From Candidatus Levyibacteriota bacterium (lineage in GTDB: Bacteria > Patescibacteriota > Microgenomatia > Levybacterales > UBA12049): a stretch of 64,000 bases of DNA. Made by a program: the position numbers and the translations under genes. Shown piece by piece: positions 58,181 through 64,000 of this stretch. The DNA is taken from NCBI GenBank assembly GCA_963716145.1, contig OY970292.1, forward strand, positions 405,171-469,170. The letters run 5' to 3'. The notes beneath the pieces are model-generated. The model was not told the origin of the DNA, did not search any database, and saw nothing but the letters and a program-made list of their open reading frames with translations. How positions within the stretch are numbered: position 1 is the first letter of the stretch; every line of letters begins with the position of its first letter.

Positions 58181-58567
58181 TTACTCATGATGAAGACCAA
58201 GCAAATGAAGCATTCCGTGCCTTACAAGCTCCTCAACTCTCTCGTCAACCAACAGTTCGTCGCGTGCTGCTTCTTTTATTACCTCAGGATAAGAAATAAC
58301 TATGTCTCCAAGCCGCGTTATGCCTGATGGCAATTTTGATGATTCGCCTTCAGCAAGTGGAAAAGAAAGAACATTGGTCGTCGTATCCTTATCGCGGTAC
58401 TGCTTATTGAGCTTCTTCATCTTGCGGTCTCCAACTATCGCGACAGAAACTTCAATCGGGCTTTTGAGCTCATTTTCTTCGCAAACACTGTATATAGCAG
58501 ATTTTATCTTCTTACGAGCAACTTTATATCTGCTTTCAACATAGATGAGAACATTAATATTATCCAT
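58181..58567 (-). CDS. ybeY: rRNA maturation endoribonuclease YbeY.
   Basis: HGMLHLLGLHHE (H..H.....H). Confidence 0.85.
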   Translation of the reverse strand: MDNINVLIYVESRYKVARKKIKSAIYSVCEENELKSPIEVSVAIVGDRKMKKLNKQYRDKDTTTNVLSFPLAEGESSKLPSGITRLGDIVISYPEVIKEAARDELLVDERVEELVRHGMLHLLGLHHE

Positions 58568-58669
58568 ATGCTATCTTCCATTTTCCAGGTTCCTTCTGCC
58601 ATTAATTGTCCATTTTAAAATTATCAAATCGAAAATAAATGGAAAATGGTAAATGGACAGTGGAAAATC

Positions 58670-58858
58670 TTAAAAGAGTTTAACTCTCGCTGCTTCTTCC
58701 TGCTTCATTTTTTTCTTAAGCTTTTTAGCAAGTGACGGCTTGAGATAAAATTTGCGTCTTTTGGCCTCCTGGATAATGCCAGCGTCCATTACTTTTTTTG
58801 AAAAATTTCTGATTACCTGATCATCTGACTGACCGGGCATTTTTTTAACATGTACCAT
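58670..58858 (-). CDS. rpsU: 30S ribosomal protein S21.
   Basis: MVHVKKMPGQSDDQVIRNFSKK ... RRKFYLKPS, S21-like. GGTGG Shine-Dalgarno upstream. Confidence 0.7.
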   Translation of the reverse strand: MVHVKKMPGQSDDQVIRNFSKKVMDAGIIQEAKRRKFYLKPSLAKKLKKKMKQEEAARVKLF

Positions 58859-58880
58859 AAAACAACACCACCTTTCGATA

Positions 58881-58966
58881 AATTTCAAATAAATACCAAT
58901 TTCAAATTACAAATGCTAAATTAATTATTGGGAATTGGATATTTGAAATTAGAAATTTGTAATTCC
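58881..58966 (-). repeat. R1-family element, copy d (upstream of rpsU).
   Basis: AATTTCAAATAAATACCAATTTCAAAT ... ATTTGAAATTAGAAATTTG. Confidence 0.75.
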
Positions 58967-60569: not shown

Positions 60570-60971
60570 ATGGATCCGACATCACTTTCCAATCTTGACC
60601 CAAAATTGAAGGATACGTATGAACGGGTGATGGGGACTTCTACTCCTGCCCCGGCAGATGCTTCAGCACCTACTACTCCTACTGCGTCTCAAACTCTTGC
60701 CGACTCAGCCCCCGCAGCTGACTCTTCAACGACAGAGAATACGCTAAGCCCGCTTCCGGAAAATACATCTCCGGCTTCTGCCGAACCACATCCTGAGACA
60801 GTTACCATAAACCAGCCATTACCACCGACACCAGCCGCTTCAGCAATAATAGATAAGCCACATGGACATTCTGGACTAATTGTAGTGTTCTACGTTTTGG
60901 GAGCAATAGTGTTTTTTGTAATCTATATTTTCTTCTGGGCCAAAATCTTCAATATTGCTCTTCCGTTCTAA
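60570..60971 (+). CDS. Hypothetical Pro/Thr/Ala-rich protein with a C-terminal transmembrane helix.
   Basis: ORF with a low-complexity extracellular-type region. Confidence 0.45.
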   Translation: MDPTSLSNLDPKLKDTYERVMGTSTPAPADASAPTTPTASQTLADSAPAADSSTTENTLSPLPENTSPASAEPHPETVTINQPLPPTPAASAIIDKPHGHSGLIVVFYVLGAIVFFVIYIFFWAKIFNIALPF

Positions 60972-61229
60972 CATAATTCTTACCGCATTATCCTTGTAAT
61001 CGAGCTCAGTTTAGGCTATAATTATGGCTTATGAAAGATGGTCAACCTATTGATATGTCGCGATATTTTATAAAACCTTCCAGTGATTCTGAAAGTGTTA
61101 GGGAAGGAACTAGAAAAAAGTGGAAGAAAGGACCTAAGCCCCCACCGGAAAAATACAAGGAAGCAACACGAAAGGAGGGCGAGAGGAGAGGTAGTAGAGG
61201 ACGCGAACCCAGACCGATGCCTTAATTTC

Positions 61230-62918
61230 CTACTTCATCCGCTTCAAAACTTCATCAAACGTTAACAGTTCCGTTTCTTTCTTGGTTCTTTCCTTCCACT
61301 CGATCTTGCCTCCTGACTTGGTACTGACGACCAGTCTCACAGGAATTCCAATCAGGTCCGCGTCAGCAAATTGAGTACCAGCCGATACATCCTCCCGATC
61401 GTCATATAAAACTTCAATACCCGCCTTTTGTAGCTGCTCATAAACTTTCTCCGCTTTATCACTACTTTTGATAGAAATCAAATGAACATCAAACGGCGCC
61501 ACAGACGCAGGCCAGATAATACCTTTGTCATCATTGCTCACTTCAACAACAGCAGCCATTGATCTACCAATTCCAAACCCATGTGCTCCCATATAGTATG
61601 GAATTACATTTCCTTTTTCATTCATAAAAGATGCGCCTGCCATTTTCAGGGAATAATGCTGACCATATTGGAAAATATTACCCGCTTCAATTCCTCTCTT
61701 TTCAATTAGTTTTGATTTACCATCAGGTGCGAGAAATCCATCCTTTGCTTTTGCAACATCAGCTGTAATTGGATGTTCAAAATCTCTTCCATAATTTACA
61801 TTTCTTGAGTCGGTTTTTTCTTCCTTCTGTCCGCCTATAAAATTCCTAACAGTTCTAAGAGAGTTATCTCCGACAAATTTCACTTTTTTATCTTTGTATC
61901 CCCAGGAGTGAACGTAACCTGATTTTGTTCCAATCGATGCCAGATCTTCATCCGTTGCGTCATCCAAAAGCCCAATGGTATCTGTAACGTGCTCTAGTTT
62001 ATTCTTATTGACTTCAAGATCTCCTCTTATGGTTGCTATAATAATTTCGCCGGTAACCCGATTTTTATAAACAACGTTTTTCACAAACCTTGATGTCGAC
62101 AATTTGTAATACTTCGTGTTTTCAGCCATAGTTCTCACCCAGTCAGGCTGCTCAACAATTTCAAATTCTTTGACCTCTTCTTCGGGATTTACATCTTCAT
62201 GCTTAAATGTCGCGATATCCTCATGGGCAATATATTTTCCGTCTTCAGAAACAAAATATGTACTCTCACCGACTTGACTTTCGACAATAAATTCATCGCA
62301 ATATTCACCACCAAAATATCCATTATCTGCTGGCACAACTTCAACTTTTAATCCAATCCGTTCAAAACTTTTTAAATAGGCTTTTTTAAACAATTCGTAT
62401 TGTTCTATAAATTCTTCATTGCTTCTTGCGAATGTATATGCATCCTTCATCACGAATTCTCTGACTCTTAAAAGCCCGCCCCGTGCCCTTAATTCATCCC
62501 TAAATTTATGCCCGAATTGATAGATGTTGATAGGAAGATCTTTGTAGCTTATCTGAAATTTGCGGACAACATCAACAAACATTTCCTCCGCAGTTCCCCC
62601 AACTGCAAATTTGGCACCGCGGCGGTCTTCAACTGTCATCAGCTCATATCCACCTGATTTATCCCTATTTGTTTCCTCCCATAACTCTATCGGGTGAAGT
62701 ATTGGGGCAAGCATCTTCTGAGCTCCAATCCTATCCATTTCCTCCTCAACAATTTTGGAAACCTTATCATGCACTCTCATACCAAGAGGTAATAGGTAGT
62801 ATCTCCCCGCGGTGCTTTCGCGGATGAATCCTGCTTGATGCAACAATTTGTGAGACGCTAGAGTTGCGTCCTTTGGCACATCTTTAATTGTTTTACCGAA
62901 TAGCTTACTATACCTCAT
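61230..62918 (-). CDS. proS: Proline--tRNA ligase (bacterial type).
   Basis: Class II motifs (FRDELRARGGLLRVREFVMKDAY ... GGRG-type), editing insertion and a C-terminal anticodon-binding domain. 562 aa. Confidence 0.9.
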   Translation of the reverse strand: MRYSKLFGKTIKDVPKDATLASHKLLHQAGFIRESTAGRYYLLPLGMRVHDKVSKIVEEEMDRIGAQKMLAPILHPIELWEETNRDKSGGYELMTVEDRRGAKFAVGGTAEEMFVDVVRKFQISYKDLPINIYQFGHKFRDELRARGGLLRVREFVMKDAYTFARSNEEFIEQYELFKKAYLKSFERIGLKVEVVPADNGYFGGEYCDEFIVESQVGESTYFVSEDGKYIAHEDIATFKHEDVNPEEEVKEFEIVEQPDWVRTMAENTKYYKLSTSRFVKNVVYKNRVTGEIIIATIRGDLEVNKNKLEHVTDTIGLLDDATDEDLASIGTKSGYVHSWGYKDKKVKFVGDNSLRTVRNFIGGQKEEKTDSRNVNYGRDFEHPITADVAKAKDGFLAPDGKSKLIEKRGIEAGNIFQYGQHYSLKMAGASFMNEKGNVIPYYMGAHGFGIGRSMAAVVEVSNDDKGIIWPASVAPFDVHLISIKSSDKAEKVYEQLQKAGIEVLYDDREDVSAGTQFADADLIGIPVRLVVSTKSGGKIEWKERTKKETELLTFDEVLKRMK

Positions 62919-62936
62919 AATAAATTCATCTTAAAT

Positions 62937-62954
62937 CCTGAGCTTGCCGAAGGA
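62937..62954. repeat. GC-motif copy CCTGAGCTTGCCGAAGGA, intergenic, just upstream of the proS start.
   Basis: The exact core sits outside any ORF. Confidence 0.75.
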
Positions 62955-62983
62955 CCGAATAATTTAGAATATTTCATATTAAT

Positions 62984-63611
62984 TTATAGATTACTCTGAA
63001 CCCCTGCCTTTTGCAATATACCTCTGTATCCATCAGAAAAAGCTTTTCCTTTCATGCATAAAAATCTTTGATCCCCTAAAGGATACGCTACTAATGTTTT
63101 ATTCCTGAAAAGTGCTCGCGTTAGTCCTTCGCTAAAATGAATATACGAAAAACCATCCAGATACCTTCTGCTTACAACCACCGAACATTCTCCCCTTTTT
63201 CTCCCCATCACTACTTCAGTATCGATTCCCACGTGATCAATACCGGTTGGCTCTTGGATTCCTAAATCTTTGACAATTTTTGCCTTATTATACGACTCAT
63301 GATCAAAGGACGTTGTTAACGCTAGGCTGGAAAAACCATCATACCCATTGCGTATTACTAAAGTTTTGGGAACAACTAATTGATTTTTGCTAAATTTCCC
63401 AAGTAATTTTTCATCTTTTCCTAACTCCCGCTTTACATCGTCTCCATGTACATAAAAATCTCCAATTCTTATAACTTCCCATGAGCTATAATCAACTCCT
63501 TCAATTAACTCCTGTGCTGTATCGCAGAGGAACTACCCTCGCCGCAGCAGTTTCTCCCTGCTGAGTAAGGGCTCCTTCCATTTCGTCATGATTTATGTTT
63601 CTTTCAATCAT
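62984..63611 (-). CDS. Hypothetical protein between the T-box leader and proS. The long frame has no ATG until 63611 in another frame, so a frameshift is possible.
   Basis: Frame A: MIERNINHDEMEGALTQQGETAAARVVPLRYSTGVN*. Frame B is open for about 180 codons (...ELIEGVDYSSWEVIRIGDFYVHGDD...GILQKAGVQSNL). Confidence 0.3.
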
Positions 63612-63628
63612 ATTCTTGTTTACATTTC

Positions 63629-63685
63629 CAAACAACAAAAACGCCCGTATCTCCTCTCCAATTATTTGAAGAAGAAATACGGGCG
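63629..63685 (-). terminator. Intrinsic terminator of the T-box leader (minus strand).
   Basis: Stem CGCCCGTAT / ATACGGGCG followed by TTTTTGTTGTTT in minus-strand sense. It ends about 20 nt before the ATG at 63611. Confidence 0.7.
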
Positions 63686-63862
63686 ATCTTAATCGCGGTA
63701 CCACCGTAATTTGTACTCACATGCTCCGTGACCGACACATGTTTGTTCTGTAACGGGAACCTCCCGTACTGCTTATCGCAGTCAGCCCCGAGTTAATCGG
63801 GATCCCGAATGAAAACTATCATCGGGACTCGTCTGGTAGGATGCCAGACTATAACGCTTTAT
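63629..63862 (-). promoter_or_regulatory. T-box riboswitch-like leader (tRNA-sensing transcription antitermination).
   Basis: Minus-strand AATTACGGTGGTACCGCG (plus 63694-63707) matches T-box AGGGUGGNACCGCG at 13 of 14 positions. It is directly 5' of the terminator. Upstream hairpins include GUCUGG-CAUCCUA-CCAGAC (CCU followed by A). An aminoacyl-tRNA synthetase gene lies downstream. Confidence 0.6.
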
Positions 63863-63868
63863 GATTTG

Positions 63869-63897
63869 ATTATATAAACAAAAATCCCTTTTGTCAA
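63869..63897 (-). promoter_or_regulatory. Consensus sigma70-type promoter on the minus strand (TTGACA-17 nt-TATAAT).
   Basis: Minus-strand sense reads TTGACAAAAGGGATTTTTGTTTATATAAT. It drives transcription into the T-box leader. Confidence 0.65.
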
Positions 63898-63920
63898 CTT
63901 CTGTATAGAAAGTTTCTTAT

Positions 63921-64000
63921 TCAGCTCTTTGAGGACGTCTTGATTGAACAATACGTTCTTGCAAGGTCTCTGCATATGATCGCAGATTCTCAAGAGAAAT
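63921..64000 (-). CDS. 3' end of an unidentified minus-strand gene (partial).
   Basis: Open frame ...ISLENLRSYAETLQERIVQSRRPQRAE* that ends at 63921. Confidence 0.3.

Follow-up and report, generated by a model that had tools for sequence, protein, structure and literature searches.

How is proS, the gene for prolyl-tRNA synthetase (ProRS), controlled near one end of the 64,000-nucleotide (nt) stretch of Candidatus Levyibacteriota contig OY970292.1 analysed here (the window, in whose coordinates positions are given), and can the structured leader upstream of it act as a T-box when the canonical Stem I is missing? The leader, a first gene with a predicted ProX-like product and proS all lie on the minus strand. 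It is very probable that the leader is a proline-responsive T-box, which controls transcription read-through into the ProX-like gene and proS. The sequence elements of such a switch are present, its antiterminator and terminator helices are mutually exclusive, its helices covary, its proline codon is conserved and proline-related genes lie behind 21 homologues. From sequence, covariation and gene context we infer that the RNA binds tRNA, in which direction regulation runs and that the tRNA elbow is not contacted. The leader is a T-box in mechanism and ancestry, yet a variant one, which fails the Rfam threshold and lacks the canonical Stem I. A preliminary description of this DNA had already proposed a proline T-box, a reading now supported by covarying helices and by the proline biosynthesis and proS genes downstream of homologous leaders, but it overlooked the non-canonical architecture, the loss of Stem III and the lack of an ordinary start codon in what it called an unknown gene. 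The elements of the leader, in the order of transcription, are the following.

63869..63897, minus strand: sigma-70-type promoter, TTGACA-17 nt-TATAAT, matching the consensus at 12 of 12 positions
63854..63863, minus strand: 5' box CAUAAAGCGU, invariant in the alignment; its AGCG (63858..63855) provides the 5' strand of basal helix P0
63831..63849, minus strand: specifier hairpin H1, six base pairs (bp) GUCUGG/CCAGAC closing the 7-nt loop CAUCCUA, conserved in the family
63787..63828, minus strand: window-specific insertion of 42 nt, two hairpins between H1 and the P0 3' strand, missing from relatives
63783..63786, minus strand: P0 3' strand, GCU plus G of the GCUGA box, with invariant A-U, G-C and C-G pairs
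63768..63782, minus strand: Stem II, ACUGC-GAUAA-GCAGU, 5 bp with a GNNRA-type pentaloop, aligned by Rfam to the model Stem II
63745..63767, minus strand: Stem IIA, ACGGG-AGGUU-CCCGU, with the F-box-like CCCGUUA and the IIB partner AAC (63747..63745), the Rfam IIA/F-box
63719..63742, minus strand: linker hairpin called stem X, outer ACAUGU/GCAUGU, a 1x1 loop and inner UCG-GUCA-CGG, with an equivalent in 22 of 22 leaders
63709..63718, minus strand: Stem III vestige, flanks GAG and AAAU kept and the hairpin down to UAC, from comparison with relatives
63678..63708, minus strand: antiterminator, drawn and covarying, with helix A1 (UACGG/CCGUA), the bulge UGGUACC (63703..63697) and helix A2 (GCGAU-UAAG-AUCGC)
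63632..63685, minus strand: intrinsic terminator, a perfect 20-bp hairpin (63685..63642) followed by the U-run UUUUUGUUGU

The promoter, which stands where it was first reported (63897..63869), is the sole site with a complete consensus match in 60900-64000, where about 8.6 weaker sites would occur by chance. In the other members of the 22-leader family, a TTGAC(A/T) -35 box and a -10-like hexamer were seen at the same place, as judged by eye from the printed upstream sequences. The transcript should begin a few nt 5' of AUAAAGCG, and because the promoter lies directly upstream of the 5' box, there is no room for the long 5' strand of a canonical Stem I. The roughly 160 nt 3' of the promoter are as rich in hairpins as had been described. 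In fact, the 244-nt leader folds at -99.7 kcal/mol, against -64.4 +/- 4.7 kcal/mol for shuffled sequences (z = -7.5), and 0 of 200 shuffles reached its value.

The T-box character is clearest in the 3' half of the leader. The Rfam model RF00230 matches 63822..63676 at 41.4 bits, with an expectation value (E) of 1.3e-6 in a 9-kb search and 9.4e-6 in a 64-kb search, and its IIA/F-box, T-box and antiterminator positions are aligned at high posterior probability, whereas the interior of Stem I, 75 nt in the model, shrinks to 3 nt in the window. The T-box sequence ACGGUGGUACCGCG at 63707..63694 agrees with the consensus at 13 of 14 positions, as had been claimed, and forms the 7-nt bulge UGGUACC in the antiterminator helix that marks members of the T-box group. 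The preliminary description made its reading depend on an antiterminator that could be drawn, and one can be: it has a predicted energy of -7.5 kcal/mol and its 3' half is common to the overlapping terminator, which reaches -35 to -38 kcal/mol. The 5' strand of the terminator (63685..63666) takes in the 3' strands of A2 and A1, so that the two structures exclude each other, and this exclusivity holds in all 22 leaders. Across the family, A1 is either CAAGG/CCUUG or UACGG/CCGUA, with two covarying pairs, A2 has 5 bp, every one of which occurs as several pair types, and the bulge is UGGUACC except for UGGUAAC in one leader. A hairpin and U-tract had been correctly foreseen as the terminator, although its supposed 9-bp GC stem is a stem of 20 bp, 9 of them G-C, and the U-tract reads TTTTTGTTGT (63641..63632). 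A GC-rich hairpin followed by 5-8 U is found in 22 of 22 leaders, with predicted energies of -22 to -47 kcal/mol. The UGGU of the bulge is expected to pair with the tRNA 3' end ACCA, and it predicts a discriminator A. This fits bacterial tRNA(Pro), whose discriminator is A73, among the ProRS identity elements.

The 5' half departs from the canonical plan, as its Stem I consists only of the basal helix P0 and the 6-bp hairpin H1. The hairpin GUCUGG-CAUCCUA-CCAGAC was found at 63849..63831, in agreement with the preliminary description, and its loop displays the proline codon CCU (63840..63838) followed by the purine A (63837). The proposal that CCU followed by A is the proline specifier is supported by the 21 other leaders, which keep CCU or CCC and a purine in the same 7-nt loop; thus CCU-A, CCC-G or CCU-G occurs in 22 of 22 loops, ahead of ornithine cyclodeaminase (ocd), proB/A/C-like or proS genes. 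The loop consensus is Y-W-U-C-C-Y-R (CUUCCUA in nine leaders, CAUCCUA in four, UUUCCCG in four, UAUCCCG in four and UUUCCUG in one), with a pyrimidine at position 6 and a purine at position 7 without exception. The H1 stem is 100% paired over the 22 leaders despite C-G/U-A/U-G and G-C/A-U changes, as illustrated by GUUUGG-UUUCCCG-CCAGAC in locus L013, GUUUGA-CAUCCUA-UCAAAC in L015 and GUUUGG-UUUCCUG-CCAAAC in L020. A reading of the loop in the manner of an anticodon (positions 3-5, UCC, serine) is at odds with the gene content. As a separate observation, positions 1 and 7 of the loop (63837..63843 in the window) co-vary, C1 occurring with A7 (CCU-A) and U1 with G7 (CCC-G, CCU-G), which suggests, from the sequences, either a closing interaction of the C-A / U-G type or a link to the third base of the codon.

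Below H1, the 5' box is aligned by Rfam to model positions 1-11 ('auaAaagCgaU'). In the family it reads AUAAAGCGU, its AGCG pairing with the (C/U)GCU of the GCUGA box, and the Rfam equivalent of this helix is the base of the canonical Stem I. The joiner between P0 and H1 has 4-6 nt, is U-rich and ends in A, and the linker beyond H1 consists of GA or AA and then zero or one short variable hairpin. Where this linker hairpin is absent, only about 35 nt separate the 5' box from Stem II. The long Stem I with its kink-turn (K-turn), internal Specifier loop/S-turn, AG bulge and distal loop was not found. In particular, no tandem G-A arrangement could be drawn by eye at the base of Stem I for a K-turn, and no AG-bulge or T-loop motifs were seen by eye in the two extra hairpins of the window.

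Stem II and the Stem IIA/B pseudoknot with its F-box, which are T-box hallmarks, follow. Stem II covaries at positions 2, 4 and 5 (position 2 is U-A in 12 leaders, C-G in 8 and U-G in 2; position 5 is C-G, U-A, G-C or U-G), and it ends in a GNNRA-type pentaloop or an extension, which in the L013/L035 type is a GAA...AGUA S-turn-like loop; an S-turn is absent from Stem II of the window copy. Stem IIA carries CCGUUA/CCGUAAAA in the family, and its loop complements a segment 4-8 nt downstream, with exchanges that include GUCU/AGAU, GGA/UCC, GGAUA/UAUCC, CCUA/UGGG, CGC/GCG and CAC/GUG. Since the register moves with loop length, a strict column-wise test does not suit IIB, and matched loops and partners were instead compared with mismatched ones, giving complementarity scores of 8.8 versus 5.7. 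For the 5' domain as a whole, the alignment derived from a covariance model (CM) has 97.7% of its cells paired, and 6 of 19 pairs are changed on both sides; 0 of 500 shuffles reached the observed values, and slid registers were 25-46% paired. The MAFFT and CM alignments misplace GCUGA in the three leaders without a hairpin in the linker between H1 and GCUGA. The per-helix counts therefore come from a regex-parsed alignment, which is cleaner than the CM alignment and agrees with it.

The comparison rests on 21 other distinct leaders of the same build, 22 with the window, in related contigs of the candidate phyla radiation (CPR; Dojkabacteria-like). Five leaders came from ProRS look-ups, and 19 metagenome loci from a scan of metagenome contigs for the 5' box, a hairpin and the GCUGA box. 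In 19 of 19 scan loci, a T-box core lay 157-235 nt downstream, a TTGACA/-10 promoter adjoined AUAAAGCG and a strong hairpin with a U-run was present. The window ProRS is 66-67% identical to that of Candidatus Dojkabacteria / Patescibacteria metagenome-assembled genomes, which places the host among the CPR bacteria. At 80-84% ProRS identity, the look-ups returned leader-ornithine cyclodeaminase-proS (L013), leader-proS (L015) and leader-amino-acid kinase (proB-like)-proS (L019); in L020, the leader precedes a gene for 116 amino acids (aa) without a known family, and then proS. The genes behind the leaders include ornithine cyclodeaminase (PF02423), proB-like amino-acid kinases (PF00696), a proA-like aldehyde dehydrogenase, pyrroline-5-carboxylate reductase and ProRS, and also a tRNA-binding-domain protein and two families without assignment. 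Among leader carriers, identity to the window ProRS falls from 84% to about 54% (44% for the short ProRS in L031), and because of this wide range the leader family is, on sequence grounds, an old one that has been patchily kept.

A few features of these neighbourhoods may be recorded in their own right. A small protein with a tRNA_bind domain (PF01588) is encoded in L029 and L032 as the third or second gene, after ocd or proBA. The 116-aa protein of L020 (2132..2482), also found in L021, has no Pfam match and lies between the proline T-box leader and proS. In L038, the proB-like gene is apparently truncated or disrupted, with a 69-aa open reading frame (ORF) from a GUG past the terminator and about 500 nt to proS.

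The proposed mechanism would run as follows. Transcription would start just 5' of AUAAAGCG, and the 5' domain would fold into a very short Stem I, made of the basal helix AGC/GCU and the 6-bp hairpin whose 7-nt terminal loop shows CCU and then A; the short Stem II and the Stem IIA/B pseudoknot would form next. The anticodon of uncharged tRNA(Pro) would pair with CCU, and its free 3' end (A73-C-C-A) with UGGU, which would stabilise the weak antiterminator and allow RNA polymerase to read through. Charged tRNA(Pro) would make no such 3'-end pairing, and in its presence the 20-bp terminator would form and transcription would stop. The genes reached by read-through would be those listed here.

63501..63611, minus strand: 36-codon ORF MIERNINHDEMEGALTQQGETAAARVVPLRYSTGVN, in the -1 frame relative to the next gene, whose start it overlaps, with homologous small ORFs in L035 and L037
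62984..63535, minus strand: first putatively regulated gene, ProX/YbaK/INS-like, without a Pfam entry, the frame being open over 63532..62984
61230..62918, minus strand: proS, presumed distal gene of the operon, encoding a bacterial-type prolyl-tRNA synthetase with an INS editing domain (PF00587, PF04073, PF03129)

For the ORF 63532..62984, no Pfam or NCBIfam match was found, and PF04073 was absent from the window protein and from 35 family members. A word-indexed homologue search with a 211-aa chimeric protein found nothing, and an exhaustive HMMER search retrieved 43 relatives (best E 1e-41), with the conserved motifs VPKT, HxGIDT and GRxxGECS. An AlphaFold2 model built on a 35-sequence alignment reached a predicted local distance difference test (pLDDT) value of 95, and its best Foldseek match was ProX 8huz (E 5e-5, probability 1.00), at an only moderate template-modelling (TM) score of 0.57; further PDB matches were the YbaK-like 1vki and 1vjf, Thermus thermophilus ProX 2z0k and the INS domain of a bacterial ProRS, 2j3l. 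The first gene is thus predicted, from the structural model, to have the YbaK/INS fold of the ProX trans-editing deacylases. It resembles ProX, ProXp-ala, YbaK and INS deacylases in this predicted fold, adjoins proS and is putatively under tRNA(Pro)-dependent control, whereas its sequence identity to them is about 10-14% and its motifs are its own. Such a modelled fold is in keeping with a protein that acts on tRNA(Pro) species and is itself controlled by a switch that senses tRNA(Pro). The idea that the ORF is a decayed ornithine cyclodeaminase, the gene that L013 has in this place, was dropped, as BLASTP shows no similarity.

The beginning of this gene is unusual. The N-terminus in the window reads EKLLRRG-TAG-FLCDTA, where relatives have MKLLWRGIFLCDTA (P0125) and ...EKLLRRGIFLCDTA (L037). 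The product of the small ORF (..ALTQQGETAAA..) has its homologue in the N-terminal extension of P0122, a protein in which both parts are fused, and L035 and L037 have the same two-frame layout, with a homologous small ORF preceded by a strong Shine-Dalgarno (SD) sequence. Over about 21 nt, CAGGGAGAAACTGCTGCGGCG (63533..63553), the window and L037 hardly differ in nucleotide sequence, in contrast to a protein identity of only about 45%. A programmed frameshift, a non-canonical (CUG) start and a pseudogene are all possible. A frameshift just after the ATG at 63481 (MGSYKNW...) was considered and rejected, as this ATG is in the small-ORF frame and its apparent conservation reflects the main frame.

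Compared with class I T-boxes (RF00230; Bacillus subtilis tyrS, glyQS and proBA/proI), the family shares the 5' consensus AUAAAGCG, the position of Stem II, the IIA/B pseudoknot, the F-box-like CCGUUA, the UGGN bulge, an antiterminator opposed to an intrinsic terminator, a specifier followed by a purine and the type of regulon, namely a cognate aminoacyl-tRNA synthetase together with amino-acid biosynthesis genes. The proline specifier of B. subtilis proBA/proI is likewise CCU. Unlike class I T-boxes, the family has no K-turn, internal Specifier loop/S-turn, AG bulge or distal loop/double-T-loop platform, it presents the specifier in a 7-nt terminal loop, it has the extra conserved stem X, and it is carried by CPR/Patescibacteria instead of Firmicutes.

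As a rule, transcriptional T-boxes depend on a long Stem I that contains an interdigitated T-loop motif, and an intermediate or 'ultrashort' Stem I occurs in translational T-boxes (PMC7583486). In the ultrashort class, the Specifier lies in the terminal loop and all members regulate ileS (bioRxiv 10.1101/2023.02.28.530422); examples are those of Mycobacterium smegmatis, M. tuberculosis and Nocardia farcinica (Sherwood, Grundy and Henkin 2015, summarised in PMC7583486, bioRxiv 10.1101/2023.02.28.530422), and it was in Actinobacteria that the TBDB paper looked with its class II model. The family resembles these actinobacterial leaders in its short-helix Stem I, its terminal-loop Specifier, the lack of a double-T-loop platform and the retention of Stem II and the IIA/B pseudoknot beside the specifier hairpin. 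However, the actinobacterial leaders are confined to ileS, with an Ile codon and an SD sequestrator, while the family has CCY, proS or proline-synthesis genes and a hairpin with a U-run, and the window leader neither precedes ileS with an Ile codon nor ends in an SD sequestrator. Additionally, most members of the family have a Stem II of 5 bp closed by a GNNRA-type pentaloop, in place of the long S-turn-bearing stem of the ultrashort ileS class. Within the library that was searched, no paper was found that connects T-boxes with CPR/Patescibacteria. We propose, tentatively and with a confidence that falls a little short of even, that these leaders are an undescribed T-box class, which attenuates transcription, reads tRNA(Pro) through a 7-nt terminal-loop specifier, has no elbow platform, is widespread but patchy in a CPR lineage, has stem X as a class-specific element and in one case regulates a gene of an unrecognised ProX-like trans-editing family.

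Stem X comes after the IIA/B pseudoknot and before Stem III; it is flanked by UGUC...GGAG or AAUC...AGAG in the family, and no counterpart to it was identified among the elements of the canonical T-box model; it might supply a compensating contact or a pause. The window copy also differs from its own relatives. Stem III, a long hairpin whose purine flanks are RAG on the 5' side and AAA(N) on the 3' side and which stops 4 nt short of the antiterminator, occurs in 21 of 22 leaders and is missing here. As a consequence of this deletion, the distance from IIA to the antiterminator is 44 nt in the window, compared with 70-150 nt in the other leaders. Set against its closest relatives, L035/L037 and L013, the window copy shows the 42-nt insertion, the deletion of Stem III, a G-G mismatch in P0, a Stem II reduced to a pentaloop hairpin and a weaker best IIB pairing (GUU/AAC), so that, judged by sequence, it is a derived member of the family. 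The insertion was also considered as a repeated element and proved to be single-copy within the window. Because of the two-hairpin Stem I insertion and the Stem III deletion, the window leader may switch less efficiently than its relatives.

Several observations weigh against a working proline T-box. The RF00230 score of 41.4 bits is less than half of the gathering score of 93, so that a standard Rfam scan reports nothing, and the whole family scores 28-48 bits. The preliminary description had named a covariance-model score below threshold as grounds for abandoning the T-box, and, taken literally, this outcome has occurred. That test is too strict, because the low score results from the missing canonical Stem I and not from the absence of a T-box. 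The elbow-binding platform that transcriptional T-boxes generally need (PMC7583486) is missing. The fourth pair of P0, G-C in 16 leaders and G-U in 5, is the G-G mismatch in the window copy. As UCC was a fixed part of the loop in the metagenome pattern, the 17 of 22 distinct leaders found only in this way are not independent evidence for CC; positions 1, 2, 6 and 7 were free in that pattern, and CCU or CCC occurs in 5 of 5 leaders from the ProRS look-ups, which were obtained without the loop sequence. No tRNA genes were found in the window or in 29 fetched loci, so that the match of anticodon and discriminator is a predicted one. Neither Rfam nor our own model (R1) detected a leader upstream of proS in L014 (82% ProRS identity), L017 (77%) and L042/L043 (68-70%), and none was found in GTDB relatives at 36-67% ProRS identity, while L018 and L041 are truncated by the end of their contigs. 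The ORF-proS order had been rightly described, but proS, with its start at 62918, lies about 720 nt past the terminator rather than the 600 nt first estimated. Finally, an in-frame TAG (63535..63533) stands in the first gene at a place where relatives encode Ile, and the gene has no ATG, GTG or TTG before 63232.

Such points could suggest that the window leader is a decaying or non-functional relic of a real T-box family, with proS expressed constitutively by read-through or from another promoter. The Stem III deletion and 42-nt insertion unique to this copy, the P0 mismatch, the TAG and missing canonical start of the first gene and the complete loss of the leader in several relatives would all agree with decay, yet we consider it unlikely. 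The promoter consensus is perfect and the terminator is a perfect 20-bp hairpin. Stem II, IIA, the specifier loop and the T-box bulge are intact, as are the two antiterminator helices, and the conserved purine flanks of Stem III have been kept. Furthermore, behind a strong terminator with no working antiterminator, proS, an essential gene, would go short of transcripts, and the stretch from the leader to proS offers no other good promoter. The two-frame layout of the first gene is common to L035 and L037 and is therefore not a recent lesion.

Control mainly at the level of translation, as in the actinobacterial ileS T-boxes, with the 3' hairpin acting as an SD sequestrator, is distinctly improbable, although a short Stem I is otherwise known only from translational T-boxes (bioRxiv 10.1101/2023.02.28.530422). 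It draws on the proB-type relatives (L019, L026, L027, L032, L038 and L040), in which the terminator 3' arm is AAGGAGGAGG, followed by U7 and directly by a GUG start; to judge from these sequences, the same hairpin could act as a terminator and also hide the ribosome-binding site, giving dual control in these leaders. However, the GC-rich hairpin with 5-8 U in every leader is the signature of an intrinsic terminator, and the start codon lies 3 to about 65 nt past the terminator in L013, L022-L024 and L029-L031. In the window, the start codon at 63611 is 21 nt past the U-tract and about 30 nt past the stem, and is not sequestered. It is harder still to credit an ordinary class I T-box whose canonical long Stem I was badly aligned by Rfam. 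The Rfam alignment does cover model positions 1-219, and the 5' box AUAAAGCG is the 5' consensus of the model, but 75-90 Stem I model positions are replaced by 3-26 nt in every RF00230 alignment of the family, only approximately 35 nt separate the 5' box from Stem II in relatives without the linker hairpin, and the adjoining promoter leaves no distant 5' strand; the two extra window hairpins, for their part, are absent from all relatives and show no platform motifs by eye. The proline-responsive, transcription-attenuating T-box accordingly remains the preferred reading of the locus.

Apart from this locus, a long inverted repeat (58560..58667) was noticed in the window between ybeY (58181..58567) and rpsU (58670..58888); it gave weak, chance-level Rfam matches (mir-3914) on both strands.

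The family puts to the test the rule that co-transcriptional T-boxes need a Stem I elbow platform for fast tRNA capture (PMC7583486; bioRxiv 10.1101/2023.02.28.530422). It also challenges the view that platform-less ultrashort leaders are translational, ileS-specific and actinobacterial, as a terminal-loop specifier is here combined with a terminator and with proline. With a decoding domain of about 100 nt in its shortest members, it offers a compact tRNA-sensing module for engineering. Additionally, it exposes an annotation gap, since at such scores standard pipelines miss all members, and it flags a new ProX-like protein family. For the organisms themselves, the leaders hint at proline routes, through ornithine cyclodeaminase or proB/A/C-like genes, that are kept under tRNA control in reduced genomes.

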